Positions 11,309 to 34,709 are shown, counted from the stretch's first letter. The stretch is 64,000 nt of DNA from a bacterium (GCA_040753555.1 JBFMDZ010000001.1:12693-76692); one strand, 5' to 3'. Numbers and translations: made by a program. Notes: generated from the letters alone by a model not told the origin.

Positions 11309-11572
11309 CTAAGGAGATATTTCAGAATAGGAAACCCCGCAATCAGGACAGGATAGGGAGGATGAAAAAACAAGCTCATCCCTTCCAGCAAGGACAATAA
11401 GGCTTCCCTTTGAAATGGCTATTCCTGTCTCAACAGAGCCAGAAAGCCCGGTGATTACTGTGAGCTTATTCCTTGGGATTTCTACATCAATATTCTTAAG
11501 GTTATGCTCCCTAGCACCTTTGATAATAATATTTTCTTTCATAATCCTAAAAAGACAAAAAGGTCTCCTCAA
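11309..11572 (-). pseudogene. uvrA: UvrA remnant. The N-terminal 35 aa are fused to a zinc-finger fragment; the rest of the ~940-aa protein is deleted.
   Basis: [32 protein letters not shown] is followed directly by ...[13 protein letters not shown]. Confidence 0.55.
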
Positions 11573-12836: not shown

Positions 12837-14642
12837 CTAATTTTCTGTCTGTGTTCCTATATTTTCTGTTTCTGTCCCTATTTCCATTGTCTCTGTTCCA
12901 GGCTCAATTGGCTCTATTTCCTTTATTCCAAAATATCCTGTTAAAATTTTTCTTGCAATAGGTGCTGCCTCAATTCCACCCTGTCCACCATGCTCAACAA
13001 GGACAACAACAACAATACTTGGGTCTTCAACCGGAGCATAGCAGACAAACCAGGCATGGTCTTTTCCCTGTGGATTCTGTGCTGTTCCTGTTTTCCCTGC
13101 AATCCTAATCCCTGGGATATATGCACCCCTTCCTGTTCCAGAAAGAACAACCTCCTCTAACCCTTTATCCAAGAGGCTTTTGGTTTCAAAAGACATATTT
13201 ATTTTCTTTTTTAAAACAGGCTTTTTCCTTATTACCCTTCCATTTGGCTCTTCTATATATTGGACAATATAGGGCTTAAATATATTACCAGAATTTGCAA
13301 TTGAGGAAACTAAAACAGCCATTTCAATAGGTGTTACAAGAAGGTATCCCTGTCCAATGGAAAGATTTATTGTATCGCCTGCAAACCATCTTGTTTTAAA
13401 AATACGCTCCTTCCAGGATGGAGATGGAATTTTTCCCTTAATTTCATAAGGAAGGTCAATGTCTGTTAGGGAAGAAAGGCCAAATATCTTTGCTTGCTCA
13501 ATTAGTTTGCCTGCTCCTATTTTTAAGCCAAGTTTATAAAAATAGATGTTGCAAGAATGGGAAAGGCCAGAGATAAGATTTACCATTCCATGGCTTTGTT
13601 TCCCAAAACAGAAAAATTTCCTATTTCCTACATCAAACCTTCCTGTGCATTCAATGTATTCGTGGGGGTCTATAACTCCTTCTTCTAACCCAAGATAGGC
13701 ATCAACAATTTTAAATAGAGAGCCGGGTGGATAGCGAAATTGTATTGCCCTGTTTGCTAAGGGATAGGATGGATTAAAAATGGTCTCTTTTGCCTCATTT
13801 GGTGAGAGCTTTTTAAGAAAGAGGGAAGGATTAAAACCAGGCTTACTCACCATACACAAAACCTCACCTGTCTTTGGAGACATAGCAACAATTGCTCCAT
13901 TTTTATAAAGGGCTTTTTCTCCTATTTCTTGGAGGTTTTTATCAATTGTAAGATAAAGATTGCATCCAGAAATTGCCTCTTCTTTCCCCAATATCCGGAT
14001 TGTCCTTCCAGAGACATTTGTCTCAATAACATCCCCTCCCATCTTTCCTTTAAGAATATCTTCGTATGCATTTTCTATGCCACTTTTTCCAATCCTATCG
14101 TCAATAAGATAACCCTCTTTTTCTTTAAATTCCTTCTCTGTGATGGGTCCAATATAACCTAAAAGGTGTGAGGCAAGCTCTGAATTCGGATAATAACGAA
14201 GAGGTTTTGCATCTATAACAAGGGATGGCATATCAAAAAAGGCAAGTGCTATCCTTAAAGCATTGTCCTTTGAAATATTTTCTATAATTGTGGCTGGTTC
14301 AAACCTGCGAAGAGATTTTTTTTTCATGCTTTTCTTTGCCTTTTCTCTATCAAATGGAACAATAGAAGAAATCTTTGATAAAATACCCTCTATTTGTTCA
14401 TCTGAAAGGCTTTCTTGAATAATGGATATGGAAAAATTAGCTACATTTGTTGCCAAAACCTTGCCTTTTCTATCAAATATCATCCCCCTAGATTGGGGGT
14501 GTGGAATTATTCTTATCCTATTCTTCAAAGACCTGGCTTTAAAATAACCTCCCCTTATTATTTGAAGATAAAAAGAGGATAAAAGGAGGATAAAAAATAA
14601 CAGAAAAAATATTATATAAAGGGAGGAAATTTTCCTTTTCAT
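12837..14642 (-). CDS. mrdA: Penicillin-binding protein 2 (peptidoglycan D,D-transpeptidase). It has a repeat-encoded acidic C-terminal tail.
   Basis: N-terminal TM segment plus transpeptidase module. It lies downstream of mreD. The tail is EPGTETMEIGTETENIGTQTEN. Confidence 0.85.
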   Translation of the reverse strand: MKRKISSLYIIFFLLFFILLLSSFYLQIIRGGYFKARSLKNRIRIIPHPQSRGMIFDRKGKVLATNVANFSISIIQESLSDEQIEGILSKISSIVPFDREKAKKSMKKKSLRRFEPATIIENISKDNALRIALAFFDMPSLVIDAKPLRYYPNSELASHLLGYIGPITEKEFKEKEGYLIDDRIGKSGIENAYEDILKGKMGGDVIETNVSGRTIRILGKEEAISGCNLYLTIDKNLQEIGEKALYKNGAIVAMSPKTGEVLCMVSKPGFNPSLFLKKLSPNEAKETIFNPSYPLANRAIQFRYPPGSLFKIVDAYLGLEEGVIDPHEYIECTGRFDVGNRKFFCFGKQSHGMVNLISGLSHSCNIYFYKLGLKIGAGKLIEQAKIFGLSSLTDIDLPYEIKGKIPSPSWKERIFKTRWFAGDTINLSIGQGYLLVTPIEMAVLVSSIANSGNIFKPYIVQYIEEPNGRVIRKKPVLKKKINMSFETKSLLDKGLEEVVLSGTGRGAYIPGIRIAGKTGTAQNPQGKDHAWFVCYAPVEDPSIVVVVLVEHGGQGGIEAAPIARKILTGYFGIKEIEPIEPGTETMEIGTETENIGTQTEN

Positions 14643-15082
14643 AGCCTCTTTCTTATAAAAATAAAGATTAAAGAAGCAAGGAGAGAATTATACAAACCCT
14701 CCTTTAAAAGATGAAAAAAATTAAGCAAAAAACCCTCAAAAAGAAAAAGAAGAAATAAAGAAATAATGCCAGAAAATATGGTTGATAAAAAGACAAGGAA
14801 AAAGATAATATAAACCCTATGGTATATCCTCTTTGAAAAAATGCTTACCAATATTGCTATTATAGAAAAAGACAAAGCGTTTATTCCAAAACGCCTTATT
14901 CCAAGCAAGTCTAAAAGTATGCCGCAGAAAAATCCAAAAAAACCTGCGCTATACGGAATACATTTCAAGGAGGCAAATATTGTTGTTATAAGAAGAAGGT
15001 TGCAAGATGTATTAAAGAGAATGAGTATTCCTGATGCTTGAACAAGAAACGCAAAAAGAATAATTATTGCCAAAAACACCAA
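14639..15082 (-). CDS. mreD: Rod shape-determining protein MreD-like polytopic membrane protein. TTG start.
   Basis: 147 aa, about 5 TM segments, immediately upstream of mrdA. Confidence 0.5.
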   Translation of the reverse strand: MVFLAIIILFAFLVQASGILILFNTSCNLLLITTIFASLKCIPYSAGFFGFFCGILLDLLGIRRFGINALSFSIIAILVSIFSKRIYHRVYIIFFLVFLSTIFSGIISLFLLFLFEGFLLNFFHLLKEGLYNSLLASLIFIFIRKRL

Positions 15083-15132
15083 TTTATTTTAAACTTTTTA
15101 TTTAAAAAATGGCAAGGATTGGTGTATTTGTT
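15056..15132. repeat. Diverged direct repeat, copy A (about 77 bp). It contains the mreD start and a truncated hdrA 5' end (MARIGVFVL*). Its partner is at 34628-34709.
   Basis: aagaataattattgccaaaaacaccaatttattttaaactttttatttaaaaaatggcaaggattggtgtatttgtt matches 34628-34709 with a few mismatches and indels. Confidence 0.8.
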
Positions 15133-15286
15133 CTGTAATTCAGAAATAACGATTAAGTATGTGTTAGCTATTAGCTTTTGGCTTTTAGCGATTAGCCTTT
15201 TAAACAAGAGAAAAAATTTACAAATTTAGAGATACTTGCACCTACGAAGTGCAAATATATTTTTGCGTTTCTGCGGTAGCATGTTA

Positions 15287-16061
15287 TCATTCAATATCTC
15301 CTTCCATCTTTAATATAATATTTTGCAAATGTTTCAACCTTTCTTTTTCTACTTTCCAATACCCTCTTCTTGCGGATTCTAACAGTAGTTCGTTTATCTT
15401 CATAGTGGCATATGGATTGTTCTGCTTAAGTCTGTTTCTCATCCCCTCATCAAATATTAATCTATCAGCGACCTTATCAAATACCCAACTTTCAACCTTG
15501 CCTGTAGTGGCAGCAAAAGCAAGAAGATATTCTACCCTATCTTTTATCTTCTTTGCGCCATGAAAATCATGCTTTAACATCCCTTCTATCCAAATAGGAT
15601 TAAGTGTTCTTGTTCTTGTAGCCCGCTCAATCGCTATCTTTAAATCATCTACAACCACTTCCTCTTCTGTAGAATCTATAACCAAAATCTCTGCCTTTTC
15701 TCCTCTCTTATCCTGAACTGTTCTTGATAGTCCTCCTAAAAATTCATAATAATGATCTAGGTCTGTAACCTCGTACTCTGTGTTATCCCTTTCCTGAGTT
15801 ACAATATCAATGGATTTAAGCAAATTGGAGAATATCTTCTCATTTTTCTCTATTCTTCCTTTGAAATAGGCATAACTCATACTATCATCATAACTCTTGA
15901 CTAAGTCTTTTTCATCTTTCCAAGCACTACTTTCAACTAATGTTCTCATTGATGTCGCATATTCTGTTGGTGAAGGTCCAAAGATTCTGGCAAGTGCGAA
16001 ATCTTTTAGTTCGCCTTTCAATTCTAAAGAATGTTTTCTTATATCCCATTTTTCTTCAATG
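15287..16061 (-). pseudogene. CobN C-terminal remnant. It covers the last ~250 aa of cobaltochelatase CobN and is fused by deletion directly to the 3' end of the upstream chlID gene.
   Basis: The 244-aa ORF aligns to the C-terminus of the intact CobN (SAWKDEKDL, LNPIWIEGM, NNPYA..LLESARRGYWK). Homology continues upstream of its TTG start (EEKWDIRKHSLE versus EEMNFVRKHSLA), across the chlID stop. Confidence 0.65.
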
Positions 16062-18032
16062 TTAAACCTCGGTAAATTCTCTGATTAGACAAGAGACATT
16101 CTCTGCTTTTATCTCTTCTAAAGAATAATACTTCCCACCTAAAGCCAAAGAGAGTTCCTGCAATCTTCCTAAGCGGACAAATCCTCTTTCTGTATCTATT
16201 ACCAGAGATTTTACCCTTGCTTCTTTTATCCTGTAAGCTATAGCCTTTGCTTCTTCAAATGGTTTACCTCCCTTTTCTATAGAGACATTAGCTTTGCCAT
16301 CGCTAACCAACACCATTAGGGTAGCAAGTCTTTTGTTCTTTCTTAATTCTTGTTTAATAATCTCAAATCCTAATTGCAGGCCTGAAGAAAGAGGAGTTCT
16401 CCCTCCAGTAGGCAACTCAGATAGTTTTTGCGAAGCCAATTCCACACTGTTGGTAAGAGGAAGCAAGACCTCTGCTCTATCTTGCTTGAAACTAACCATA
16501 CTTACTCTATCCCTTTTTTGATAGGAATCAGTGAGTAAAGAGAGAATAGCCCCTTTGGCAGCTGACATTCGTTGTGAGGCACCCATAGACCCTGAGGCAT
16601 CTACCACAAAGACTATCAGGTTACCAACTTTCTTCTCCCTCTGCTTTTGCCGAATATCTTGAGGTGTAATAATTATTTTCTGATTTTCTGAAACCTTATT
16701 TCTTTTTATCTGATGTGGTGCTGCTGCTCTGAATGTAGCATCAAAGGCAATATCATCCTTTCTCTCCTTGGGTAAGCAGCTCTTGATATACCTACCCCTT
16801 TTATCATCAGAAATAGTCTTGCTTCTTCTGCCAGTCCCCTCTTTTAGCTCTCGTTCTTTTGCCAGGTTTAACTCTTTTACCTGAAACTGCCTATCTACAT
16901 CAAAGAGAGTCTCTTTGCTTGCGTCTTGCCTGGCCTGAGGCTGGCAATTGTTCATTTCCTTATCCTGATTCTGATAGCCATCTGTCTGTTTCTTCTCTTC
17001 CTTATGCTTCTTAAAGGTCTGTTCCAGCTTTTGTTGTTCTGTCTTTTCTCCCTGGTGAGGCTTTTTTCGTATTCGGTGGGGCAAAACAAACTCTGCTGCT
17101 TCCTTGACATCATCCTCTGTAACTTCTGTGCGTTGGTTGAAAGCGGCAATTGTTTTAGCTGTCTTCACCATAAATATATCTGCTCGGTGGCCATCTACTC
17201 GCATATCGACTGCTATCTTGGCAATTAGGTCTAACATATCATCAGGAAAGACCACATCCTTAAGTAATCTGCGAGCTGTAAGGATTGCTTCACTCAGTCT
17301 CCTTTCTTCTTTTTCCCACTCAGCAGCAAATTTAGCTGGATCTTCCTCAAACTGCTCTCTTCTTTTGATGATTGTAACCCTCTCTTTAGGCTCGTCTATC
17401 CCCTCAATATTCACACATAAACCGAATCTATCAAGCAATTGAGGTCGCAATTCCCCTTCTTCAGGGTTCATGGTGCCAATAAGGATAAAATGGGCAGGAT
17501 GAGAGTAAGAGACTCCTTCCCTTTCAATTGTATTTATACCCATAGCCGCAGAATCAAGTAGGACATCAACAATGTGGTCATCTAAGAGATTTACCTCATC
17601 TACATAGAGTATGGCTCGATTTGCATCAGCCAATACTCCTGGCTCAAACCTCTTTTCTCCAGTCTTTAGGGCATGTTCAATATCAAGGGTTCCAACTACC
17701 CTATCTTCAGTTGAGCCTACAGGGAGATTGACTACCTGTATCTTCCTTTTAATTACTGGAAGGTTTTCTCCTTGGGTCTTTCGATTACGGCATTGCTCAC
17801 ACATCAATTCTTCCCTCTCAGGATGGCAGCTGAATGGGCAGTCTTTGACCACCTCAATCTCTGGCAAAAGATTTGCTAATGCCCTGGCTGCAGTTGATTT
17901 GGCTGTCCCTTTTTCTCCTCGAATAAGTACCCCAGAAATCTGAGTATTTATGGCATTTAAGATCAAAGCCTTCTTCATCCGCTCTTGACCAACAATAGCA
18001 GTAAACGGAAATGTTATAGCTTTACAACTCAT
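16062..18032 (-). CDS. Mg-chelatase-family ATPase, ChlI/ChlD fusion (AAA+ plus vWA/MIDAS), paralog 1.
   Basis: [10 protein letters not shown]-loop and ChlI-like N-half. C-terminal vWA domain ([12 protein letters not shown]). Confidence 0.85.
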
Positions 18033-19138
18033 CTTTTACCTCCTTTAACAGGAAGATTAAGCTCCTCAGGGTAGGTCCAAGTTCCTTGCAATTCCATCTT
18101 CCAAAATCTCTTTAGCATCTCTTTATGCACAGCCTTTGGCAAAAGATCTGGAAAAAGTTCAGGGTGGAACCATTTTGCCTTATAACAAGTACCTATAACC
18201 TGTCTTGGTCCAGCACAAAGCTTTGAATGGATGATGTAAACCCTCCCTTCCTTTACTGCCTTTATAAGATTTAACCCTTCCCTGTGCATGATCTCATCTC
18301 TAATTGCCTTCATAGCTTCTAAAGAAGGTATACTGCCAACCCCTTCAACCCAAGGAATCTTTATGATAATATCAGGGTCTTTCTCTACAACCCATTCAGG
18401 ACTCATTATTGGGGAGCGAACAGGTTGTCTTCCTACACAATTTATCCCACCTGCTATCTCTATCTGAATCTGCGTAGGACTCTTATACATAAATTTCCCC
18501 CATGGTGTTTTCATTGAGTTTTCTCCTTGAGCCGTTGATTGATAGGGTTTGAAGACCTCACAGAATATGCTTGGCTTTTTTTTAACAGGGATACCTTCTG
18601 TTTTCTCCCTAATCATATCTATCTTACTATTTATAAATTCCTTTAGCTGATTTGCTTCTTTCTCTCTACCAAGCAACTTTCCCATCTTTTCAATAAATTG
18701 GAGGGTTTCAGCAAGCGTCCAAACCCTAAAGCAAAGAACCCTTATCTCTGCTCTCTCTAACTTCTCTATCACCTCTTTCTCTGTCCACTGATAGGCTATA
18801 ACCAAATCTGGCTTAAGTTCTATGATCCTTTCAAGATTTGGAGTGACTGTACTCTTTCCCACTGATGGCTTCTTACGAAGCTCAGGAATATATTCACCCT
18901 CAGGGTTGCAGATGCCTACAATTCTTTCTCCTTCTTTTAAGGCACAGATAACCTCAGCAGGATAGCCAGTCAAGACCACAATTCGCCCTGGAATACTGGT
19001 AAAAGCTGCCTTTCTTCCCATTTCATCGGTTATGACAATCCCTTTTGAAAGACTCACTTCCTCTTCTGGTTTTGGTGCGCAACCGGCAATAAAAACCATA
19101 AGAAAGATGATCAATGCTATCCTCATTTTTACTTTCAC
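18029..19138 (-). CDS. ABC transporter periplasmic substrate-binding lipoprotein (FecB/BtuF/CeuE class III), paralog 1.
   Basis: Lipoprotein signal ([11 protein letters not shown]). Class III substrate-binding fold of the Fe/Ni/cobalamin family. Likely ATG start at 19126. Confidence 0.75.
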
Positions 19139-19164
19139 CGTACGTGTTTAGCTTCGCTAAACAA

Positions 19165-19290
19165 TTGCAAATTGTAAATTGCAAATTGTAAATTTCAAAT
19201 TGAGAGAGGATGAATTTTTTATAATCATTATTTTTTTACCTCTTTAAATTTACAATTTAAAATTTGCAATTTAAAATTTACAATTCCAAA
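19165..19290. repeat. AT-rich AAATTGTAAATT-type tandem arrays in inverted arrangement. Related arrays lie at 22187-22312 and 50124-50175.
   Basis: caaattgtaaattgcaaattgtaaatt...aatttacaatttaaaatttgcaatttaaaatttacaatt. Confidence 0.7.
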
Positions 19291-19353
19291 GCTAATGGCT
19301 AAAAACAAGAGCCCGTAGCTAAACATATACTAAAGGAGCTAAACACATACCTT

Positions 19354-20325
19354 TCACCAAAATATTGCCAATCCAAAGATAAATATTATTGTTATTCCAT
19401 TTCTGATTATCTCTGAGATACCCACCAACTGTAAGCCTATCTTAGGACCAAATATTCCTATATAATAGGGCATAATATATTGAAACACCATGACAACACT
19501 CGAAAGAACACTTCCGATAAGGAGTGAAAGCACCACACCCTTTTGGGTAAGCTCGCCAGCTGATAAGAGGCTACCTGCCACAGTATAGGCAGCATTTGAG
19601 TGTGCCAAGAAGGCAGCAACTATTCCCAATCCTTCAGATGGTATAGGGAAATAAAGAATCACTCCCTTAAGTAGATGAGATAATCTCTCAAAAACCCCTA
19701 ATTCTATCAATAAGCAAGAGAGAATCAAGGTTGGAATTATTACCATAATTATCCGTTTAATCGTATAATTAGAATTCTTCAAGGCAGTACAGAACGCCTC
19801 TTTTAAAGGAAGAATCTTTTTCTTTTCAATACTTGTCTTTGAAGCAGCCCTTTTTTTTAGTATAAGTCTTGCCACTATCATTAGAAGTGATGTTTTAACC
19901 AGAGCTACCAGAACCAGAATAAGGAAGTATAAGAGGCCAGCAAGTCCTAAAAGAGGCAAAAGTATAGGCAACATACTCCGCCAGTGCATGAGGATTGCTG
20001 GAAATGTATTGATCATGGCGGCAAGGAATAACTCCTTCTTTTCAATAACCCCCTTATTATAATAATTAGCAAGCATAGAATTGGCAGATGTAGGTGAAGC
20101 AAAGGCAGAAAGAAAGATTATCCCACATTCATCCTGTAGGTGAGAAAATCTTGTAATTGGTCTTGCCAGAAAGGATAGTCTATCTACCCATCCTAAAGAG
20201 ACAATGAACTCAGCCAGTATAACTCCTAAGATAATGATAGGTACTGTCTTCAGAAGCAACCAACCTGCCATTGTTAAACTACTTAATAATATCTGGCTCA
20301 TCCCACTAACTTGGTGAAAGGGCAA
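19354..20325 (-). CDS. Polytopic membrane protein, nucleoside-recognition (Gate) domain-like. Putative transporter component.
   Basis: 323 aa, about 8-10 hydrophobic segments, co-oriented with the ABC genes. Confidence 0.3.
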   Translation of the reverse strand: MPFHQVSGMSQILLSSLTMAGWLLLKTVPIIILGVILAEFIVSLGWVDRLSFLARPITRFSHLQDECGIIFLSAFASPTSANSMLANYYNKGVIEKKELFLAAMINTFPAILMHWRSMLPILLPLLGLAGLLYFLILVLVALVKTSLLMIVARLILKKRAASKTSIEKKKILPLKEAFCTALKNSNYTIKRIIMVIIPTLILSCLLIELGVFERLSHLLKGVILYFPIPSEGLGIVAAFLAHSNAAYTVAGSLLSAGELTQKGVVLSLLIGSVLSSVVMVFQYIMPYYIGIFGPKIGLQLVGISEIIRNGITIIFIFGLAIFW

Positions 20326-21079
20326 TTATATGAGGTCTGCCTGCACTATTACTTACCTTCACCTCTACTCCATAGACCTCCCTTATGTTCTCTTCTGTAA
20401 AGACTGCCTCTACTTCTCCAGCAGAAAATACCCCTCCTTCTTTGAGCATCATTACCTTATGGGAGTATCGAGCTGCTAAGTTCAAATCATGTATAGCCAT
20501 TATGGCTGAAATCCCTCTTTTGTCTACTATATTTGTAATTAAATCCAAGACCTCCAATTGGTGCCTTAAGTCCAGATTGGAGGTTGGTTCATCAAGTAGA
20601 AGAATTTCAGGCTCTTGAGCCAACGCTCTGGCTATTACCACCTTCTGTCTCTCTCCTCCAGATAGCTGACTAAACTCTCTCGTAGCCATACCCTCAAGTC
20701 CCATCAAATTCAAAAGATGTGCCACTACTTCCTTGTCCTTGGTGCTTACAGACCAAGTTATATATGGTCTTCTACCAAGCAGCACAGTGTCAAATACTGT
20801 GGAATAGAAAGAAGAGTTTGCATCCTGTGGTACATAGCCTACAAGTTTGGCAATCTCTTGAGATTTCATCTGCTTTATGTTCTTTTCCTTTACCAAAATC
20901 TTGCCTATCTTAAACTTCAATATTCTGTTTATACATTTAAGGAGCGTAGTTTTTCCTGAGCCATTTGGTCCTACAAGGGCAAGTATTTCGCCATCTCCAA
21001 CTTCTAAACTTACTCCCCTTAATGCCTCAACGCTATTATAACTAAAATATACATCCTTAATCCTAAGTTTCATTGCCAA
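20306..21079 (-). CDS. ABC transporter ATP-binding protein (FecE/BtuD-like), paralog 1.
   Basis: GPNGSGKTTLL, LSGGERQ, LLLDEPTSNLD. Confidence 0.85.
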   Translation of the reverse strand: MAMKLRIKDVYFSYNSVEALRGVSLEVGDGEILALVGPNGSGKTTLLKCINRILKFKIGKILVKEKNIKQMKSQEIAKLVGYVPQDANSSFYSTVFDTVLLGRRPYITWSVSTKDKEVVAHLLNLMGLEGMATREFSQLSGGERQKVVIARALAQEPEILLLDEPTSNLDLRHQLEVLDLITNIVDKRGISAIMAIHDLNLAARYSHKVMMLKEGGVFSAGEVEAVFTEENIREVYGVEVKVSNSAGRPHIIALSPS

Positions 21080-22137
21080 TACTGTTTCCTTCTTGTTATA
21101 AGTAAATAGAGGAAGAATGGACCTCCTAAGAATGCTACCACTATCCCAACAGGAATGACAGTAGGAGCAATGATTGTCCTGCCTACAGTATCACTTGCTA
21201 AAAGAAGAAAGGCCCCTACAATACAAGAGCCTGGAAAGAGGAATCTATGGTCTGCACCAATAAGTGTTCTTGTTATATGAGGTGACATAAGGCAGATAAA
21301 TCCAATAATTCCTGTAAAACAGATGATTCCAGCCGTAGCCAAGGTTGCCAATACCATCACCACATTTCTTGTCCTGGTGGTGTTTACTCCCAAGCCCTTG
21401 GCCACATCTTCACCTGAGGCCATAGCATTCAAGTCCCAGGAGTACTTAGAAATACCTAATGTCACCAAAAGGGTGAGTATTCCTACTATGGGAAGCATAT
21501 CCCATCCTCCTGTACTCAATGTGCCAAACATCCAGTGAACTAAAGCATGGAGCTCTTCTTTTGTAGCAATATACTGGAGCAGAGATACAAAGGCACTTAT
21601 TATATACATAATGGCAATTCCAGCCAAGATAATGGTCTCTGAACTTACCCCCCTAAGCCTTGAAATACCAAGGACAAGAAAGGCAGCTCCAAGAGCAAAG
21701 ATAAAGGCATTTGATATGATGAAGTACTTCCCACTACTAGCTATGCTTGCCCCAAGGACGATGGCTACTGCTGCTCCAAGGGCTGCACCAGCAGATACCC
21801 CAACAGTAAAAGGACTTACCAGTGGATTCCGGGTTATCCCCTGCATGGCTGCTCCGGAGACTGCAAGTCCTGCACCAGCGATGATTGCCATCAGTATTTG
21901 AGGTAGTCTGAGCTGCCAGACGATTGTATCAGCCATCTTTGATGGTTCAAGGTTAAAGAAGGGAAAAGCCTTCTGAATGATTACTGAAAGTACCTCTGTT
22001 CTTTTAATATCTGCTGCTCCCTGAAAAGAAGCAAATACTGCCAGAATTACTATAGCTATAAGGCCTAAGATTATAAAGGCAAATTTCTTTGCTGTAAGAG
22101 TCTTATAGATATCTTTGTATGTGTTTAGTTCATCCAT
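21070..22137 (-). CDS. FecCD-family ABC permease (iron/nickel/cobalamin type), paralog 1.
   Basis: 355 aa, about 9 TM segments, FecCD signature region (RNPLVSPFTVGVSAGAALGA). Confidence 0.85.
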   Translation of the reverse strand: MDELNTYKDIYKTLTAKKFAFIILGLIAIVILAVFASFQGAADIKRTEVLSVIIQKAFPFFNLEPSKMADTIVWQLRLPQILMAIIAGAGLAVSGAAMQGITRNPLVSPFTVGVSAGAALGAAVAIVLGASIASSGKYFIISNAFIFALGAAFLVLGISRLRGVSSETIILAGIAIMYIISAFVSLLQYIATKEELHALVHWMFGTLSTGGWDMLPIVGILTLLVTLGISKYSWDLNAMASGEDVAKGLGVNTTRTRNVVMVLATLATAGIICFTGIIGFICLMSPHITRTLIGADHRFLFPGSCIVGAFLLLASDTVGRTIIAPTVIPVGIVVAFLGGPFFLYLLITRRKQYWQ

Positions 22138-22346
22138 TGTATGTGTTAAGCTTCCTTATGCTAAAGAGCCAAAAACGCTTTCTTTAATTGTAAATTTTAA
22201 ATTGTAAATTTTAAATTGTAAATTTTTTTAAAATACAAAATCTAAATCAAAACTTCTTCATTCCTCATTTCATTTTACAATTTGCAATCTACAACTTGCA
22301 ATTTACAATTATGTTTAGCGAAGCTAAACACGTACTTTCTTTTGCT

Positions 22347-25300
22347 TCAGCCATAAAGAACCTCCTTTACCTCTTTCATCTTTTTATCCCAATCTTTAAC
22401 CTCTTCAGAAGTCAATATATCTACTGAACCTCCCTGAAAGTCTCCCTCAACCTCACCCATCCTTTCCTCCAACAGCCCTTCAGTCTTAAGATAGGCTTCC
22501 TTCAATCCCTGCAGGACCTCCTCATCTGCCTTCCAAAGACCCCTCTGGGCTGCCTCAAGCAACCTCCTTTCTATCTCCTCTAAAGCCCAGGGATTATTCT
22601 CCTCAAAGAATTTGCGATTTTCTTCATTAAGACAAAATGTCTTCGCTATATCATCAAAGATCCAGTCATCAACCTCCTGGGTTGTTGCCTCCCAGCCATA
22701 TACCCTTCCTATACGCTGGGAAATGTCACCTGCCCCTTTGTATCCGTGTTGTTTCATCCCTTCAATCCATTTTGGGTTAAGCAGCTTTGTCCGCACTACA
22801 CGCCTGATCTCGTCTGCCATATCCCGCACCTCAATATGCTCTGGTTCACGGGTATCGCCGTAGTAAGTCTTGACCTCTTTACCCGAGATATGCCGGGCAG
22901 CCGCAGTCATCCCACCATGCGTGCCAAAATAGCAGCAGCAACCAAAAAGATCGTATTCATCAGATACTACTTTATTGTAGGTTATATCTACTGTTTTAAG
23001 ATTCTCTGCTAATTGCTTATGTTTTTCCTCTCCGAATATGCCTTTGCCATAGGCATACCCATTCCAGTAGATAAAGACATCTGAAAGATCTTTTTCATCC
23101 TTCCAGGCAGAGGCATAGACAGCCAGTTGTGTTCCTGCCTGGTAGGTGCCGGGTTTTGATGCAAAGACGCGTAAGGTAGCATTTCGCCAGGCATCATATT
23201 TATTTCCTTCACTCTCTTTTGCCTCTGCTAATTGTGCTAAAGAGTGCTTACGAACAAAGTTCATCTCTTCTGGTTCCGGCAATGAGGCTACTGCTTGAAT
23301 AGCCTCATCTACAAGCTCAATACAGTTTGGAAAGTTATCCCTCGTTATTCCAGACACCCGGATAGTAACATCAATTCGTGGCCTTTCTAATTCTTTTAAT
23401 GGAATTATCTCAAATCCTTTTACCCTTCCATTGGAAAGCCAGATAGGTTTAACTCCAAGTAGATATAATATCTGAGCCATCCCTTCACCGTCAGACCACA
23501 TAATATCATTGCACATCCAATAAATAGCTACATTCTCAGGGATTCTACCTTCTTCTTGCTTGTATTTCTCAATTACTGCCTCAGCAAGCTTCTGCCCAAC
23601 CTTCCAGGCAGCTTTACTGGGAATGCGGTATGGGTCAAGAGAATAAAAATTCCTGCCCGTAGGCAATATATCATCCCTGCCACGGGTGATCAAGCCTGAG
23701 GGACCTGGAGGGATATACCCGGAATCAAAGCCAGCAAGGAGTGCTTCTATCTCTTGTGATTCATCAATCCGGCGGTTCAAATCAGTTACCTTTTCCCAGA
23801 TTATTTTAAGGCTATCTATATACTCTGCATTCTTTAATCTTCCACCTAACACCTCATTAGCTAAGTTGCCTAAATCTTTCTCATTATTTATCATCCTACG
23901 GATGAATTCCTTGCAGATAGTATTTATCTCCTCAAGTAGTTCTCCGTAACTCCTCTTATGGTATGGACAGACCTTACCACCATCGGTTAGTAAATCAGAT
24001 AGATTCATACCCATCATTGCCGAAACAATCTTCCGTAGAGAAACCTCCTCACCGGCATCATAGCGCAAAATCGAATTTATGAACTCTACACGCCTTTCTC
24101 CTTCAGGCAACTGACCGAAGATGTGCATCCCATCCTGAATCTGTGTATTTCGTGTTCGGGATAGCACTAAGTGAGCAGCACAGGCTATCTCGTCAAAGGA
24201 GAGAGATTTGGCTTCATTTTCACTAATGTCTGAGAGCCTTATTCTCTTCTCTATACCTTCGGCATTTCTGCGGTTAATCTTAATCTCCTTGTCCAGATTT
24301 GTCTTCTTTATGGCTTCCATAATCAGATGCTCTAAGGCAGCTGCTCTTCCCGGGTCTAAATTCTTTATCTGTTCATATTCTCCCAAGAACCGGTCTAATT
24401 CTTCCAATTCTTCATAAAGCCCTCCCTGCATCATCACTGTCTGCATATGGTCAACCAAGGTAGCATAGCTCCTTCTTTTGGCAATAGTGCCTTCAGGTGG
24501 GTTGTCAGCATTATAGATATAAAGATGTGGGATGTCTCCAATACCTATATCCGGATAGCATTCGGCGGAAAGCCCTACTCCTTTCCCCGGTAGAAACTCC
24601 AGATTACCATGCGTTCCTACATGTATGATGACATCACCGAAATTTTTCTCCAGATATCGGTAAGTTGCCATGTATTGATGAGGGGGAGGAATATCAGGGT
24701 CATGGAGTATCTTACATACTCGCCCATCACATCTTGCACCCGCACAGCCTCTTTTTGGCTGAACACATACTACTGCATTGCCATACTGAACTCCAGTAAC
24801 CACAATCTTTCCATCATAAACCATAGCTGCAGGTACACCATTCACTTCCCTTCCTGGAGGCTCTCCCCAGGCACCATTCATCCGTTCTTTTACCTTTGGC
24901 GAAAGGGTATTGAACCAACTTTCATAATCCTTGGTGGAAATAAGTGATAGTGCTCCTCCTTTATTTACAATCTCATCAACGGTTGTCCAGCGAAACTCGC
25001 TGATAGCCTTTCGTTCCATAATAGTATCAATGAGTTCCTTGCCATTCTGAGGAGGGGCTACCTTATAGCCTACCTCCTTCATCCGCTGTATTATCCGAGC
25101 GACACTTTCTAAAGTATCTAAATGAGCACCAAGACCAACTGTCGCTTCAACTGAGGCACAAGGATTATTGTGGAAGATGAAAGAAACTTTTCTTTCATCA
25201 ATAGGCTTCTTCTTAAGCCTTATCCAGTTCTTTATTCTTCTTGCTATCTTATGGCATCTATCTTCTAAGGGGACTCTGGCTCGCAAACTTGCCCCTATAT

Positions 25301-26321
25301 CCAAGTCCTTTTCCCAAGATTTAGCACCGGCTATAATTGGCTCAATCCTCCCCTCAAATTCTGGAAAAGCCACATGATAGGCGATATCTTGAGTTAAACC
25401 TTCGGGATTATTTTTCCACTCTTCAATAGTCTTATAATAAGCATCTATAGGCTGAAATACTGGTACCCCTAATTTCTTTAAAACCTCGATACCTTTTTCT
25501 TTTGCATCCTTCGGCTCTTCCATGTTGCCTCTATCGTTCCCAAGAAGCGTCCATTGAAGGTTCACTAACGCATCAATTCTGGGAACTCCATCTTTAAGGA
25601 AATACTCACAAATTATCTCTGCGCTCCCTTTACTCCCCAACTCTTCATCCCTTACTGAGTAAGAAAAGGCAGGGATAACATCCAAATCCTGCTCTTCAAG
25701 TGCTCTTATTAACGCTTCCTCTACCCTTATATTTTCATCGACCCAGTAATTACGGAAGTAAAGAAGACCCACTTTAGGACCCTCTTTCGGCTTGTACTCT
25801 CTATACCATTTGAGATATTCATCCACATCATCAAAGTAAGAGGAAGCATTAGGATGGTAAATTCCTTCCCAAGGAAGTTTCTTGGGTGGTTTTACTTCTA
25901 TTTCCATTCCCGTAACTTCTTTGGCAATATAGCGCAGCATATTAGAGAAGTTTTCCTCCCCACCGAAAGTTACATAAGATTGGCAAGTAGCTACAATCTC
26001 CAGCTTAACCGTAGAAAGACTCCAGTAAGAAGGATCATATCCTATACAAATAATTGGTACTTCCTTTCTTATCTCCCTTATCCTATCTTCAATCTGGTCC
26101 CAGAAACCTTCGGTTGACCGGTGCAAAAAGACTACATCTTGTCCCTTCAGCTCATTCAACACCTCCTCGATTTTCTCTGGATATTCCCTGAGCAAATCCG
26201 CAGGGAACAACTTTAACTCTACAAAATCTAACTTCTTACTTGCCTGAGCTACCATCTCTGTAGAAGTTGCCCATGTAATAGCCCCTAACTTCATATGACC
26301 ACCTCCTTTTTTATATCTCAT
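22347..26321 (-). CDS. cobN: CobN-family chelatase large subunit (cobaltochelatase CobN / Mg-chelatase ChlH homolog), intact.
   Basis: 1324 aa. C-terminal NPKWIEGM...NNPWA motifs and family-wide length. Confidence 0.85.
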   Translation of the reverse strand: MRYKKGGGHMKLGAITWATSTEMVAQASKKLDFVELKLFPADLLREYPEKIEEVLNELKGQDVVFLHRSTEGFWDQIEDRIREIRKEVPIICIGYDPSYWSLSTVKLEIVATCQSYVTFGGEENFSNMLRYIAKEVTGMEIEVKPPKKLPWEGIYHPNASSYFDDVDEYLKWYREYKPKEGPKVGLLYFRNYWVDENIRVEEALIRALEEQDLDVIPAFSYSVRDEELGSKGSAEIICEYFLKDGVPRIDALVNLQWTLLGNDRGNMEEPKDAKEKGIEVLKKLGVPVFQPIDAYYKTIEEWKNNPEGLTQDIAYHVAFPEFEGRIEPIIAGAKSWEKDLDIGASLRARVPLEDRCHKIARRIKNWIRLKKKPIDERKVSFIFHNNPCASVEATVGLGAHLDTLESVARIIQRMKEVGYKVAPPQNGKELIDTIMERKAISEFRWTTVDEIVNKGGALSLISTKDYESWFNTLSPKVKERMNGAWGEPPGREVNGVPAAMVYDGKIVVTGVQYGNAVVCVQPKRGCAGARCDGRVCKILHDPDIPPPHQYMATYRYLEKNFGDVIIHVGTHGNLEFLPGKGVGLSAECYPDIGIGDIPHLYIYNADNPPEGTIAKRRSYATLVDHMQTVMMQGGLYEELEELDRFLGEYEQIKNLDPGRAAALEHLIMEAIKKTNLDKEIKINRRNAEGIEKRIRLSDISENEAKSLSFDEIACAAHLVLSRTRNTQIQDGMHIFGQLPEGERRVEFINSILRYDAGEEVSLRKIVSAMMGMNLSDLLTDGGKVCPYHKRSYGELLEEINTICKEFIRRMINNEKDLGNLANEVLGGRLKNAEYIDSLKIIWEKVTDLNRRIDESQEIEALLAGFDSGYIPPGPSGLITRGRDDILPTGRNFYSLDPYRIPSKAAWKVGQKLAEAVIEKYKQEEGRIPENVAIYWMCNDIMWSDGEGMAQILYLLGVKPIWLSNGRVKGFEIIPLKELERPRIDVTIRVSGITRDNFPNCIELVDEAIQAVASLPEPEEMNFVRKHSLAQLAEAKESEGNKYDAWRNATLRVFASKPGTYQAGTQLAVYASAWKDEKDLSDVFIYWNGYAYGKGIFGEEKHKQLAENLKTVDITYNKVVSDEYDLFGCCCYFGTHGGMTAAARHISGKEVKTYYGDTREPEHIEVRDMADEIRRVVRTKLLNPKWIEGMKQHGYKGAGDISQRIGRVYGWEATTQEVDDWIFDDIAKTFCLNEENRKFFEENNPWALEEIERRLLEAAQRGLWKADEEVLQGLKEAYLKTEGLLEERMGEVEGDFQGGSVDILTSEEVKDWDKKMKEVKEVLYG

Positions 26322-27094
26322 GATAAAGATTTTATTGGTATGATATATGGGCTTACTGAAGCTTTACTTATAATAGCTTCTACCCCATAAACTTCCCTTA
26401 TATTTTCTGGAGTAAATACTTCTTTGGGCTGTCCAATGGCAAAAATCTTTCCCTTCGTAAGAAATAGCATCCTGTCTGAAAATCTAGAGGCAAGATTTAA
26501 ATCATGAATGGCCATTACTATTGCTATAGCTTTCTTCTTTGCTAAAGAGCTGATAAGTTCCATAACCTCAAGCTGATGCCTTAAGTCCAGATTACTGGTA
26601 GGTTCATCAAGGAGCAAAACTTCAGGTTCCTGAGCCAATGCCCTTGCTAAAAGAACTTTTTGTTTTTCCCCGCCACTCAGCTCATTAAAATATCTTAGCA
26701 TCATATCTTCCAAATTCATTTCTTTTAGTATCTGAGAAACAATCTCTTTATCCTTAAAGCTTATACTCCAAGTGATATAAGGTTTTCTTCCTAAGAGCAC
26801 GGCATCAAAAACTGTTAAAGGGAAAGAGTAGGAGGAACTTTGGGGAACATAGCCTAAAAGCTTAGCCAATTCCTTTTGTTTAAACTTGCTTGTCTCATTC
26901 CCATCAAGATAGATAACCCCCTTTTGTGGCTTCAAAATCTTGTTGATGCACTTAAGAAGCGTACTTTTCCCTGATCCGTTAGGACCAAGTATGCTTATCA
27001 CTTCTTCACCTTTTACCTTCACGCTTACATCTTTCAGAGCGGGTCTACTTCCATAGGCGAAGCAAACTCCATTTATCTCTATTCTCATGTCCAA
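26318..27094 (-). CDS. ABC transporter ATP-binding protein (FecE/BtuD-like), paralog 2.
   Basis: GPNGSGKSTLL, LSGGEKQ, Walker B. Confidence 0.85.
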   Translation of the reverse strand: MDMRIEINGVCFAYGSRPALKDVSVKVKGEEVISILGPNGSGKSTLLKCINKILKPQKGVIYLDGNETSKFKQKELAKLLGYVPQSSSYSFPLTVFDAVLLGRKPYITWSISFKDKEIVSQILKEMNLEDMMLRYFNELSGGEKQKVLLARALAQEPEVLLLDEPTSNLDLRHQLEVMELISSLAKKKAIAIVMAIHDLNLASRFSDRMLFLTKGKIFAIGQPKEVFTPENIREVYGVEAIISKASVSPYIIPIKSLS

Positions 27095-28155
27095 TATTCC
27101 TTCCTTCTGGTTATTAAAAGATACACAAAGAATGGAACTCCAATAATCGAAGTTACAATTCCTACTGGAATTATGACTGGAGAAATAATATTTCTTCCTA
27201 TAGTGTCAGCGATGAGTAATAAAAGTGCGCCAAGGATACAGGAAAAGGGGAGAAGAAACCTATGATCCGCTCCGATTAGTAGCCTGGCTATATGCGGTGT
27301 GACAAGACAAACGAAGCCTATTATTCCAGTAAAGCAAATTATTCCAGCAGTAATTATTGTTGCCAATATCAGACAAATTATCCTTACTTGAGGGAGGTTA
27401 ACTCCAAGACTTTTGGCAACTTCATCTCCACCAGATATGGCATTTAAATCCCAGGAATGCTTCATTAAGAAGGGAAAGCAGAAGAAGAATATAATCGATA
27501 CCACTAATACATCATTCCAGCTTGATCCAGTGAGACTTCCAAATGTCCAATGGATCACTGCTTGAAGCTGTTTTTCAGTGGCGATGTATTGGAGTATAGA
27601 GGTAAAAGCTGAAAAAAGATACATCAGCGCAATTCCAGCCAGTATCAAAGTCTCTCCTGTTATTCCTCTCATCCTCGCCAAACCAAGAACTAAAAAAGCG
27701 CTGATTAAAGCGAAGATAAAAGCATTTGTTACCACTATGTATTTTTCACTTCCAAGAAGGCTAAACCCAAGGACAATGGCAATAGATGCTCCAAAGGCTG
27801 CAGCAGAGGAGACCCCAATGGTGAAAGGGCTTACCAAGGGATTTCGCGTAATTCCTTGCATCACTGCACCAGATATGGCAAATCCTGCTCCAGCGATTAT
27901 CGCCATTATAATCCGAGGAAGTCTTATATCCCAGATAATGTCCTCAGTAAACTCTGAAGTTTCTATATTGGCAAAGGGAAAAATTTTAGCCAAAATAGCA
28001 GAAGCTATATCATTTATCTCTATCTGGATAGTACCAATGGTGCAGGCTATAAGCCCCATACCTATAACTGCGCCAATACTGGCAAGAATAAATAATATCT
28101 TCCTTGCAGTAAACCTAAAATACAGGTCCTTTATTTCAGAGGTGGATATGCCCAT
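27085..28155 (-). CDS. FecCD-family ABC permease, paralog 2.
   Basis: 356 aa, collinear with paralog 1. Confidence 0.85.
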   Translation of the reverse strand: MGISTSEIKDLYFRFTARKILFILASIGAVIGMGLIACTIGTIQIEINDIASAILAKIFPFANIETSEFTEDIIWDIRLPRIIMAIIAGAGFAISGAVMQGITRNPLVSPFTIGVSSAAAFGASIAIVLGFSLLGSEKYIVVTNAFIFALISAFLVLGLARMRGITGETLILAGIALMYLFSAFTSILQYIATEKQLQAVIHWTFGSLTGSSWNDVLVVSIIFFFCFPFLMKHSWDLNAISGGDEVAKSLGVNLPQVRIICLILATIITAGIICFTGIIGFVCLVTPHIARLLIGADHRFLLPFSCILGALLLLIADTIGRNIISPVIIPVGIVTSIIGVPFFVYLLITRRKEYWT

Positions 28156-29237
28156 GTTCCTTCAAGTTCTACTCCCCAGAATTTCTTCCACATCTCTTCA
28201 TGTATCTTCTGAGGAGAAATATCGTAAAAGAGATTAGGATGAAACCATTTGGCAAAATAGCAAAGACCAACTATTCCTCTTGGCCCAGCAAGTATTTTTG
28301 AGTAAATGATATAGACCTTCCCTTCCTTTACAGCTTTCACATTTTTCAAAGTTCTCCTTCCAATTACCTCTTCCCATACCTTTTTCATTGTTTCCTCAGA
28401 TGGTGCCCTCCATACTTCTTCATTCTTCCAAAGAGAAAATTTAACGATTATATCTGGGTTTGCTTCCCTAACGAACTCAGGATCTACCTCTAGATAAGCA
28501 ACCGGCTGCTTTCCAATGCAATTTATTCCTCCTGCAAATTCTATCATCCAATTACCAAGATTCTTTGCAGAGTATTCACCCCATGGAGTTAGCAAGGTCT
28601 GTTTTTCTAAAGAGGAAACCGTATGATATTGCTGATAACGTTCTTTGTATACCTTTGGCTTCTTTTCAGGCTTTAAATCTTTGACCCTTTCTTTGATCAA
28701 GTTTAATTTACTCTCTATAAATTCCCAAAGCTCCTTTGCCCTCTTCTCTTTTCCTAACATCTTCCCAAATTGCTCAATCGCTCTATGTACTTCCTCATCT
28801 GTGTAACTTCTGAAGCAAAGAATAGGCATACCCCATTCCTCTAATTTTTCTGCCACTTCCTTCTTAAGATATGGATTAGCTATTACTACATCTGGATTAA
28901 GTTCACGAATCTTTTCCAGATTGGGTTCTACCCAGCTCTCTCCTACAGATTCTTTCTTTCTGAGTTCAGGTAAAAGTTGACTTTTAGGCGAATACATGAT
29001 ACCTACGATTTTATCCCCTTTCCCTAAAGCACAGATTATGTCAGCATTATATGTTCCTGATACGACTACAATTTTCTTAACCGGTTTTGATAAAGAGGTT
29101 TCCCTTCCTAAGTCATCAACAATGGTTATTTTCCCTCTAGGTGCCTTCTCAATCTTCTTCGGAACGGAAGAGAAGACCAAGCTTACTATTAAACCAAATA
29201 TCACTATGGCTATTATAGGCATTATTTTCACTTTCAT
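28131..29237 (-). CDS. ABC transporter periplasmic substrate-binding protein (FecB/CeuE-like), paralog 2.
   Basis: N-terminal signal/TM segment. Collinear similarity to the 18029-19138 protein. Confidence 0.75.
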   Translation of the reverse strand: MKVKIMPIIAIVIFGLIVSLVFSSVPKKIEKAPRGKITIVDDLGRETSLSKPVKKIVVVSGTYNADIICALGKGDKIVGIMYSPKSQLLPELRKKESVGESWVEPNLEKIRELNPDVVIANPYLKKEVAEKLEEWGMPILCFRSYTDEEVHRAIEQFGKMLGKEKRAKELWEFIESKLNLIKERVKDLKPEKKPKVYKERYQQYHTVSSLEKQTLLTPWGEYSAKNLGNWMIEFAGGINCIGKQPVAYLEVDPEFVREANPDIIVKFSLWKNEEVWRAPSEETMKKVWEEVIGRRTLKNVKAVKEGKVYIIYSKILAGPRGIVGLCYFAKWFHPNLFYDISPQKIHEEMWKKFWGVELEGTWAYPPLK

Positions 29238-29293
29238 CCTGCTTTTCCCCTTCCTACTAAAGCTTCTGTAATTTAACCACAGATGAACACAGA

Positions 29294-29740
29294 TTAAATT
29301 ATTAACCTTTCATATTCTAACTTTGGCTGAGCAAAATTTAAAATTAAACCAATCCGGTAACCAGATATCCTTAAATAATTAAGTAACTGTGCTCGATGAA
29401 CATCAGTAATTGTTTCTACTGATTTCACTTCTACAATAACTTTTTCTTCAACTATCATATCAGCAACATATAACCCTACTTCTTTCTTACGATAAAATAC
29501 TTTAAATTCTTTCTGTGTTACAACTTTCTTTTCTCTGAGAGTCAATTCCCAAGTAAGCCCATTTTCGTATACTTTTTCTAATAATCCACAACCCAAGGTA
29601 TTATGTACCTGAAATGCTGCATCTAATATCTCACTAGTTAGTTCCTTATAGAGAAATTCTTGTACTTTATCTGTGTTTACCTGTGGTTTCATATCTGTGT
29701 TTACCTGTGGTTTCATATCTGTGTTTACCTGTGGTTTCAT
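29294..29740 (-). CDS. GxxExxY protein (PD-(D/E)xK superfamily). Its N-terminus is built from a 24-bp x3 tandem repeat.
   Basis: [27 protein letters not shown]-terminal MKPQVNTD x3; the start could be any of the three Met codons. Confidence 0.6.
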
Positions 29741-31706: not shown

Positions 31707-31718
31707 CTGGCTACCTTC

Positions 31719-33944: not shown

Positions 33945-34075
33945 TTTTTTACCTCCTTTTATGTTACTTTTTTAAAATTCATGCTACCAAAAGTCTACCA
34001 AAAAAATTTATCTCATGTCAATAAAAATTTATTACCTTTTTAAAATTCGTGCTACTTAAAAGAAAAAAAATATCC

Positions 34076-34495
34076 TCATACTATCTCTTCCCCTGTAGTA
34101 GCCATACTCAGACTGCCGTATTTTACCCCTTTGGTGGACTTCAGTCTAAAAGCAAGTCTCTCTACTTCTTTAGGCATACCTTTAACTGCAATTATCTCCA
34201 AGCAATTATTATGATCTAAATGGATATGTTGTGATGAAAGGATAAGTTTATGCTCCCCATGTTGAATATCTGTTAACTTATTCACTAACTCTCTTCGGTG
34301 GTGGTTATAGACAAGGACAACTGCTCCACCTACTTCCCTTTCATCGGTCATCCACTCGCGCTTTACCAAACTCTCCCTTATTAAATCCCTTATTGCCTCT
34401 GAGCGGTTAGGATAATCCTTCTCTTCAAGCAGTCTATCAAATTTAGTCAGGAGTTCTTTATCAATTGATATCCCAAAACGAACCAACTGCGACAT
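34076..34495 (-). CDS. nikR: Nickel-responsive transcriptional regulator NikR.
   Basis: Ribbon-helix-helix N-terminus (RFGISIDKELL...NRSEAIRDLIR) and C-terminal metal-site residues (HIHLDHNNCLEI). Full-length alignment to E. coli NikR. Confidence 0.85.
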   Translation of the reverse strand: MSQLVRFGISIDKELLTKFDRLLEEKDYPNRSEAIRDLIRESLVKREWMTDEREVGGAVVLVYNHHRRELVNKLTDIQHGEHKLILSSQHIHLDHNNCLEIIAVKGMPKEVERLAFRLKSTKGVKYGSLSMATTGEEIV

Positions 34496-34570
34496 AAGTC
34501 AGACCTCTTTTATAATATTACTTTTATAAAAATAGTAGCACAAGCTTTAAAGAAATGTCAAGCAAAATTT

Positions 34571-34638
34571 TTGCAATGTTTAGTTACAATAATAAAATGT
34601 TAATCTTTTTGAAAAAGCAATCACAAGAAAGAATAATA
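34571..34638 (+). promoter_or_regulatory. Candidate sigma70-type promoter(s) for hdrA. The nikR leader lies on the opposite strand.
   Basis: TTGCAA-16-TAAAAT at 34571-34598 and TTGAAA-17-AATAAT at 34610-34638. Confidence 0.25.
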
Positions 34639-34709
34639 ATTATTGCCAAAAACACCATCTTATTTTAAACTTTATTCTTAAAAAATGGCAAGGATTGGTG
34701 TATTTGTTT
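34628..34709. repeat. Diverged direct repeat, copy B. It contains a truncated mreD start (MVFLAIIII...stop on the minus strand) and the intact hdrA start.
   Basis: Matches 15056-15132. Confidence 0.8.

Follow-up and report, generated by a model that had tools for sequence, protein, structure and literature searches.

The subject of this comparison is a 64,000-nucleotide stretch of bacterial DNA (GCA_040753555.1, JBFMDZ010000001.1:12693-76692; called the window below) and, within it, a 19.5-kb segment of putative metal/tetrapyrrole-uptake genes that separates two divergently oriented genes, mreD and hdrA, the latter coding for an HdrA-family flavoprotein. The sequences support the view that this segment was inserted or deleted precisely at the divergent mreD/hdrA junction, with the two copies of an 80-nt direct repeat as its exact limits. 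Each copy of the repeat holds an mreD-type and an hdrA-type start, and in a close relative the same two genes lie back to back with a single copy of the repeat and without the segment.

Repeat pair, gene stubs, and empty site

A repeat search over the window returned a direct repeat family of two members, copy A at 15053-15132 and copy B at 34629-34708, each 80 nt long, 91% identical without gaps (73/80), and spaced by 19,576 bp. This confirms the original prediction of ~80-bp diverged direct repeats near 15056-15132 and 34628-34709 and refines their limits. Alignment with MAFFT recovered the same 80-nt block with unrelated flanks. The repeat itself scores 125 in local alignment compared to 17 for shuffled sequences, and no similarity was detected beyond the 80 bp in the 200 bp on each side (p = 0.12 and 0.85 against shuffles). 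Since these flanks align no better than shuffles, the repeat has sharp limits. When up to three mismatches were allowed, an 18-mer and a 28-mer taken from it matched the window only at copies A and B (expected in shuffles, 0.16 and 0.00), and no further copies of the 80-bp unit as a dispersed promoter or repeat element are present in the 64-kb window. Furthermore, among 152 loci, the junction motif was found only in the relative described below and in an independently assembled contig of the window's own organism. Hence, the possibility that the repeat is merely a promoter element common throughout the genome, which had been named as a reason to abandon the island, finds no support in these searches.

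Closer inspection of the reading frames revealed how the two copies are built. Copy A consists of the first 10 codons of an intact mreD (minus strand), a 26-bp spacer, and the first 8 codons of hdrA (plus strand); copy B carries the intact hdrA start together with an mreD-type start. The intact mreD occupies 14639..15082 on the minus strand and codes for 147 amino acids from a TTG start (144 in the NCBI version), and it is followed on the same strand by the PBP2 gene (12837-14642; Pfam). The Pfam match of MreD is borderline (24 bits, exactly at the cut-off), and its identity is drawn also from the NCBI name (MEW6102229) and from the position of the gene directly upstream of that for PBP2. The intact hdrA lies at 34685..36655 on the plus strand (656 amino acids; Pfam). 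In copy A, an orphan hdrA stub (15109..15138, plus strand) reads MARIGVFVL and then stops, so that the predicted arrangement of an intact mreD next to an hdrA cut after nine codons is borne out. In copy B, the orphan mreD stub (34584..34658, minus strand) reads MVFLAIIIILSCDCFFKKINILLL and then stops. The intact hdrA and the interrupted mreD frame that had been described for this copy were both recovered, but the stub is 24 codons long and not 23. Its start codon is kept, with ATG in place of TTG.

The empty site was found by a search with PBP2 over one genome per species. The only close relative was a metagenome-assembled genome (MAG), MAG236, with a PBP2 that is 88% identical; the next PBP2 matches are at most 40% identical and stem mostly from MAGs of Elusimicrobiota/Endomicrobia. 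On contig JBFMED010000150.1 of MAG236 (locus L001), hdrA (306-2330, minus strand) lies back to back with mreD (2357-2800, plus strand), with 26 bp between the two starts, and mreD is followed by the PBP2 gene and then by a DUF4143 ATPase gene, as in the window. The junction equals copy A on the mreD side (79/80 positions) and continues without a break into hdrA, like copy B; it contains exactly one repeat copy, zero extra bases, and no island. This is the uninterrupted junction for which a comparison with related genomes had been proposed, and a relative with the repeat pair but without the island was not seen. A 31-nt block (15102..15132, corresponding to 34678-34708) is identical in copy A, copy B, and L001, and the differences between copy B and L001 are confined to the island-side half of copy B. 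All seven mismatches between copies A and B (15055, 15058, 15082, 15083, 15098, 15100, and 15101) fall within the island-adjacent left 49 nt of copy B, and none falls within the 31 nt that adjoin hdrA. With an even spread, such clustering would have a probability of (49/80)^7 = 0.03.

A third MAG from the same study has an MreD (MEW6481969.1, encoded on a 9.3-kb contig) that is 92% identical to the MreD of the window. Residues 9 and 10 of the copy B stub are I and L, as in this third-lineage protein, compared to L and F in the window's own MreD; the N-terminal variant therefore reads AIIIIL in the stub and in MEW6481969.1 and AIIILF in the window MreD and in MAG236. Because the copy B stub keeps its start codon and the third-lineage variant, copies A and B most probably differ as two lineages differ and not by local decay or drift alone. 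Consistent with this, the hdrA stub of copy A, which is equally unconstrained, shows no change, whereas the corresponding half of copy B has seven. If the mreD of the third lineage adjoins hdrA with the junction ...ATTATTATTCTT... / ...CATCTTATTTTAAACTTTATTCTT..., the island-side half of copy B would derive from it.

MreD as a whole is a three-way mosaic among the window, MAG236, and the third lineage. Identity to L001 is also uneven around the junction: the DUF4143/AAA_14 ATPase gene (11547-12770 in the window) is 98.6% identical to its counterpart, compared to 84 to 92% for its neighbors (PBP2, 88%; hdrA, 84%), and a 174-bp tract across the junction (14970-15132 plus 34709-34719) has a single mismatch. 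This mosaic identity indicates either recent recombination between the window and MAG236 lineages or an unusually strong constraint; judging from these patterns, recombination among the lineages seems evident.

More distant relatives of MreD (L068 to L070; 58 to 65% identical) have a dnaJ, mobB, or PMT-family gene upstream of mreD, and therefore, the mreD/hdrA adjacency is specific to a small clade and the distant relatives are unable to set the polarity of the event. A gain in the window lineage and a repeat-mediated loss in the MAG236 lineage would yield the same sequences and are indistinguishable here. Exact-protein look-ups with the window MreD, its NCBI version, and HdrA returned no record. 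A scan of a metagenome collection with a 23-nt sequence from the hdrA start and junction gave no match, and hence, the organism is absent from that collection.

The repeat as a putative bidirectional control region

Two promoter-like sites, which are consensus matches only and lie in AT-rich DNA, are contained wholly within the repeat, with hexamers that are identical in copies A and B. The site facing hdrA (15067..15095, plus strand; TTGCCA-17-TAAACT, 9/12 consensus positions; 34643-34671 in copy B) has its first hexamer within codons 4 and 5 of mreD, and the site facing mreD (15086..15115, minus strand; TTGCCA-18-TAAAAT, 10/12; 34662-34691 in copy B) has its first hexamer within codons 1 to 3 of hdrA. 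Since each first hexamer falls in the first codons of the opposite gene, the 80-bp unit is best described as a complete, compact, putative bidirectional control region together with both start codons. Both sites and both starts are part of the repeated unit, and therefore, after insertion, the mreD-pbp2 operon and the hdrA operon would each retain a full control region and their first codons.

The duplication would also leave two spare promoters. That of the mreD type, in copy B, faces nikR and the rest of the island across the stub, and that of the hdrA type, in copy A, points antisense into the truncated gene cobN' at the left end of the island. About 130 nt downstream of the latter, a terminator-like hairpin followed by a T run (15236..15254, plus strand) could stop antisense transcription into the island. 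The nikR gene has a promoter-like site of its own (34532..34561, minus strand; TTGACA-18-TACTAT, with TG), and this region is kept in a nikR locus that is 82% identical (L076). No special RNA structure was detected in the region of the orphan-promoter transcript (15100-15270; folding z = 0.06).

Possible routes of gain and loss

On the evidence at hand, we lean slightly toward a single-crossover (Campbell-type) recombination of a circular island, with the exchange in the 31-bp identical block; the probabilities conveyed in this section are rough and not meant to sum exactly. In this model, the cluster for NikR, the TonB receptor, the ATP-binding cassette (ABC) importers, CobN, and the ChlI/ChlD proteins would be accessory DNA that enters and leaves exactly at the promoter region shared by mreD-pbp2 and hdrA. 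The putative circle would have carried one ~80-bp copy of a relative's mreD/hdrA junction, and a crossover with the resident junction, placed by us inside the 31-bp block that is identical in all versions, would leave a copy A that is of the resident type throughout and abuts the cobN' end, and a copy B that is of the donor type on the island side and of the resident type from the 31-bp block into hdrA. Such hybrid copies are indeed present: copy A equals L001 at 79/80 positions, and copy B has its seven differences on the island side and carries the I9/L10 variant. Recombination between the two copies would excise the island precisely and leave one repeat, which is the state of MAG236. Either host recombination or a site-specific recombinase encoded elsewhere may have made the exchange, and its direction may have been gain or loss. 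It is also imaginable, although rather doubtful in our judgment, that the 80-bp unit serves as a portable homology cassette that permits integrase-free integration and precise excision in related lineages by host homologous recombination alone. If so, the promoters of the essential flanking operons would be preserved throughout, and transcription of the island would start from the spare mreD-type promoter.

Several observations weigh against the single-crossover model. Neither a circular junction nor an excision product nor a second insertion was observed, a circular donor contig with one homology copy was absent from the collections searched, and mobility is deduced from a single occupied and a single empty site. 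Over 31 to 80 bp, a homologous single crossover is inefficient, a dedicated recombinase is more usual, and none was seen. Nor does the model account for how the 80-bp duplication first arose. The third-lineage signature consists of two residues (three nucleotides) and is taken from the protein sequence of that lineage. Furthermore, the clustering of the mismatches (p = 0.03) could reflect selection on the hdrA start and on the -35 box of mreD, the near-identical 174-bp tract may mean that copy A was recently overwritten, which would blur the original repeat pair, and palindromic elements of the host lineage within the island (described below) indicate that the segment is long resident or stems from a close relative, so that a recent arrival is not evident.

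An alternative that we regard as unlikely, but worth serious consideration, is an integrase-mediated island, in which the repeats are attL and attR, attP mimics the mreD/hdrA junction, and the integrase was lost, has its gene beyond the 64 kb of the window, or works in trans from another element. In line with this, the limits of the indel coincide with the direct repeats, and the empty site has a single copy; the deviating composition of the segment also fits, as does the divergent island-side half of copy B, which is expected of an attP arm; repeats that rebuild the ends of target genes are, moreover, found in many integrative elements. However, as the original prediction had noted, no integrase is visible: Pfam searches of all open reading frames (ORFs) of at least 90 amino acids in the window (64 kb of a 94.8-kb contig) revealed no integrase, resolvase, DDE, transposase, or other recombinase domain, and the gaps between the island genes are 215 bp or less, so that no hidden recombinase gene fits in the island. 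A tRNA scan found no tRNA or tmRNA gene in the whole window, nor were there any Rfam families at gathering thresholds, and therefore, neither a tRNA target nor a riboswitch is present. The cargo is a widespread chromosomal uptake cluster in which Pfam found no conjugation, replication, partition, or phage genes, and the island had no megablast match to plasmids or phages. In viral contigs, the 23-mer was not found, and a 19-mer gave five chance matches that share only 17 to 28 of 80 positions with copy A. An island bounded by the same repeats did not recur in the metagenome, viral, plasmid, and phage collections. Since the defining recombinase and a recurrence elsewhere were looked for and not found, we do not classify the island as an integrase-borne element. 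Of the original prediction of an island that integrated at mreD/hdrA with att-like duplications, the location thus stands, supported by the empty site and the exact limits, while att sites and a mobile element are unproven, given the lack of a recombinase, a tRNA target, and recurrence. A different course of events, which we consider improbable, would be that the island is ancestral to the clade of the window and MAG236, was lost in MAG236 by recombination between the repeats, and owes its repeats to an older insertion. A crossover in the 31-bp block that deleted the island would recreate the L001 junction exactly, the compositional shift is only modest, a low-GC PDDEXK_3 gene has been inserted into the island since, and palindromes of the host lineage (GTAYGTGTTTAGCT...AGCTAAACACRTAC) occur inside the island (19140-19350 and 22117-22335), outside of it, and in L070, which points to a long residence. 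However, the loss in MAG236 is a question of polarity that is compatible with either mechanism, the insertion that made the duplication is still needed, L068 to L070 contribute no polarity, and the third-lineage signature of copy B speaks for an exchange between lineages more than for plain vertical inheritance.

Two further explanations concern the joints themselves. A transposon-type insertion with an 80-bp staggered-cut target-site duplication and subsequent drift of the nonfunctional halves would produce direct repeats exactly at the boundaries, without homology beyond them, and would place the differences in those parts of copy B that are freed from the mreD coding constraint. However, neither a transposase nor terminal inverted repeats at the ends of the island (score of 20 compared to a shuffle mean of 19.5) were found, and 80 bp is far beyond known target duplications. 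In addition, drift alone fits poorly with the unchanged hdrA stub of copy A next to the seven changes in copy B, which reproduce a functional variant of the third lineage and keep the start codon, and we therefore rate this course as the least probable of all. Nearly as remote is an assembly artefact in which 19.5 kb of a separate circle or of DNA from another strain was joined at the 31-bp exact repeat. Both joints between island and stub were recovered independently in a Logan assembly of run SRR29635778: contig L071 spans nikR, the mreD stub, and the shared block, and contig L073 spans cobN', 154 bp, and the shared block. In a k = 31 graph, contigs are bound to stop at this exact block, as both do here, and hence, the stubs are confirmed, whereas the long-range order is not; a graph of this kind looks the same for an integrated island as for a circle beside an empty site. 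In the deposited contig, however, the protein accessions run consecutively from MreD (MEW6102229) over the 14 island proteins to NikR (ending in 243) and HdrA (ending in 244), and hence, the 94.8-kb contig has the same, integrated gene order. Moreover, every read is longer than the 31-bp block, as is the final k of common metagenome assemblers, genes for replication or partition are lacking in the segment, and the island DNA itself bears both stubs, so that the duplication is real whatever the joining.

Cargo, known systems, and significance

The inserted segment (15133..34628; 19,496 bp) contains 14 genes, and as predicted for the stretch from cobN' (15287) to nikR (34495), all 14 ORFs are on the minus strand. 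From left to right, Pfam and sequence comparison identified a C-terminal CobN fragment (cobN', 15287-16021), a ChlI/ChlD fusion (chlID#1, 16062-18032), a periplasmic binding protein (18029-19138), a Gate-domain membrane protein (19354-20325), an ABC ATPase (20306-21079), an ABC permease (21070-22137), a full CobN of 1324 amino acids (22347-26321), a second ABC importer set (26318-29237), a PDDEXK_3 gene (29294-29740), a second ChlI/ChlD fusion (chlID#2, 29667-31706), a TonB-dependent receptor (31719-33944), and nikR (34076-34495). A TonB-dependent receptor, a CobN-family protein, a ChlI/ChlD AAA+/VWA protein, and an ABC importer are thus located together on the island. The combination of a TonB-dependent receptor with a CobN-like HmuS and ChlI/ChlD-like proteins is known from hmu-type loci, where HmuS is a heme de-chelatase in Bacteroidota (PMC12583661). 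With regard to cargo only, the cluster resembles these loci in its TonB-dependent receptor, its CobN-family protein, and its ChlI/ChlD AAA+/VWA proteins, and the same gene order is seen in many metagenome loci; unlike them, it adds BtuF/FecCD/ABC-type importers and NikR and has two paralogous sets, one of which includes the truncated cobN. Nickel, cobalt, or a metallo-tetrapyrrole are candidate substrates.

The cobN' fragment, fused directly behind chlID#1 (15287-16062), is annotated by NCBI as a product of 257 amino acids. Its nearest relatives are 83 to 86% identical (L074 and L075) and extend upstream in frame, and in the window, homology (IEEKWDIRKHSLE...) persists for 13 codons upstream of the first start of cobN', up to the stop codon of chlID#1. 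The fragment is a true 5'-truncated cobN. Short stand-alone CobN C-terminal proteins are present in archaeal genomes; a natural protein of this kind was considered for cobN' and dropped, as the closest relatives and the homology in the window continue upstream in frame. The PDDEXK_3 gene, of the GxxExxY type, has a very low GC content at third codon positions (GC3; 0.22) and starts in three perfect 24-bp tandem repeats (29668-29740) that encode the C terminus of chlID#2 in another frame. This gene type is found in none of more than 60 related clusters, and it is therefore a later insertion into the island.

In composition, the island deviates modestly from its surroundings, in the direction expected for foreign DNA, which answers the proposed check of GC and tetranucleotide content. 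GC3 of the island genes is 0.346, compared to 0.302 for 38 other genes (Mann-Whitney p = 4e-4), and the tetranucleotide correlation with the rest of the window is 0.83 to 0.90, compared to 0.95 to 0.98 elsewhere; outside the island, only a giant gene for a flagellar hook protein stands out. The cluster type (NikR, TonB receptor, binding protein, permease, ATPase, CobN, and ChlI/D) occurs on dozens of unrelated metagenome contigs at 50 to 69% identity, with conserved synteny in more than 30 metagenome loci, and in these, it is never located beside MreD, PBP2, or HdrA. The nearest island proteins elsewhere are 64 to 86% identical and lie in other contexts. For NikR, the best non-self match is 82% (a JGI metagenome contig), and the search returned no homolog at the level expected for a MAG236 ortholog; this bears only indirectly on MAG236, whose own genome was not part of the search for island genes. 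Junction-like flanks with mreD or hdrA stubs are absent from L074 and L075 (cobN) and from L076 (nikR): homology to L074 and L075 ends at the cobN stop codon, and homology to L076 extends to ~100 bp upstream of the ATG of nikR and does not reach the mreD stub.

The palindromic elements mentioned above form a family of intergenic elements of ~90 to 220 bp with inverted ends (GTAYGTGTTTAGCT ... AGCTAAACACRTAC) and an AT-rich core with a 7-nt period (AATTGYAAATT); with 12 occurrences, the end motif far exceeds the 0.32 expected. Elements are found at 7222-7308, 19140-19350, 22117-22335, and 57279-57500, with a core only at 50118-50170, and at 2287-2543 of L070. Two are thus inside and two outside the island, with another in a distant host relative, and the family resembles repetitive extragenic palindromic elements or miniature inverted-repeat transposable elements. 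A lone, partial end-like motif (GTATGTGTTAGCT, 15157-15169) lies 24 bp inside the left edge of the island; for the 154 bp between copy A and cobN', an assignment to this family is unconvincing.

Other parts of the window contain further duplications and probable insertions. At 53847-57085, an internal part of ftsK (55075-55708) is repeated at 56472-56969 with 85 to 96% identity and a 135-bp deletion, and the intact ftsK is separated from this fragment by a hicB/hicA toxin-antitoxin pair (55922-56470). The edge of the window (1-571) consists of five to six tandem copies of a 99-bp unit, 71 to 89% identical and covered on one strand by ORFs 23-388 and 470-754, which may be a repeat-protein gene cut by the window end. 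The FlgE-family flagellar hook protein encoded at 45560-50104, with flgD just upstream (50205-50657), has 1514 amino acids, several times the usual length, and a deviant tetranucleotide composition. Defense- or selfish-type genes and fragments flank the island, namely, Schlafen/AlbA_2 (2714-3865), a DarT-Macro fusion (7439-8602), the C-terminal half only of an endonuclease V (10294-10593), a Uma2 nuclease (38952-39536), and an ORF6N-domain protein (39996-40538), the gene for which is placed between mvhD and the following Fe-S genes. Between hdrA and mvhD (39608-40030), low-GC LysM/NlpC-P60, YkuD, and Uma2 genes are present.

Integrative islands and prophages commonly rebuild the end of their target gene with their attachment sites, as do islands at the 3' ends of tRNA genes and SCCmec at the 3' end of rlmH/orfX. 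The island described here shares with them direct repeats at its limits, a single copy at the empty site, a modest compositional deviation, and a repeat that supplies a replacement gene end, so that the target stays functional. In contrast to them, it has no integrase, excisionase, tRNA target, or mobility genes in the window, its repeats are long (80 bp) and only 91% identical, and its target is an intergenic bidirectional promoter, with a repeat that restores the 5' ends and the promoters of two genes. In Campbell-type integration, circular DNA enters via a short homologous segment, as in suicide plasmids and in plasmid/chromosome cointegrates. The likeness to this process lies in an insert flanked by two homology copies, in their hybrid nature (resident outside, donor on the island side), and in reversibility by exchange between the copies; however, with 80 nt in all and an exact match over only 31 nt, the homology is very short for an exchange that depends on RecA, the insert has no vector backbone, and a circular intermediate was not observed.

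The reading as an insertion is thus largely right, and the island represents a new case of a known type, in which target-restoring direct repeats enclose accessory DNA; it is a well-supported but ordinary indel in a poorly known bacterial lineage. It is unusual in that a complete bidirectional promoter forms the target and in that the window shows no recombinase. It provides a natural example of a large accessory cluster inside a 26-bp divergent promoter region without damage to either neighbor. If the exchange is independent of an integrase, islands would be gained and lost between close uncultured lineages by very short homology alone, and this would bear on how accessory metal-uptake functions spread without obvious mobile-element machinery.

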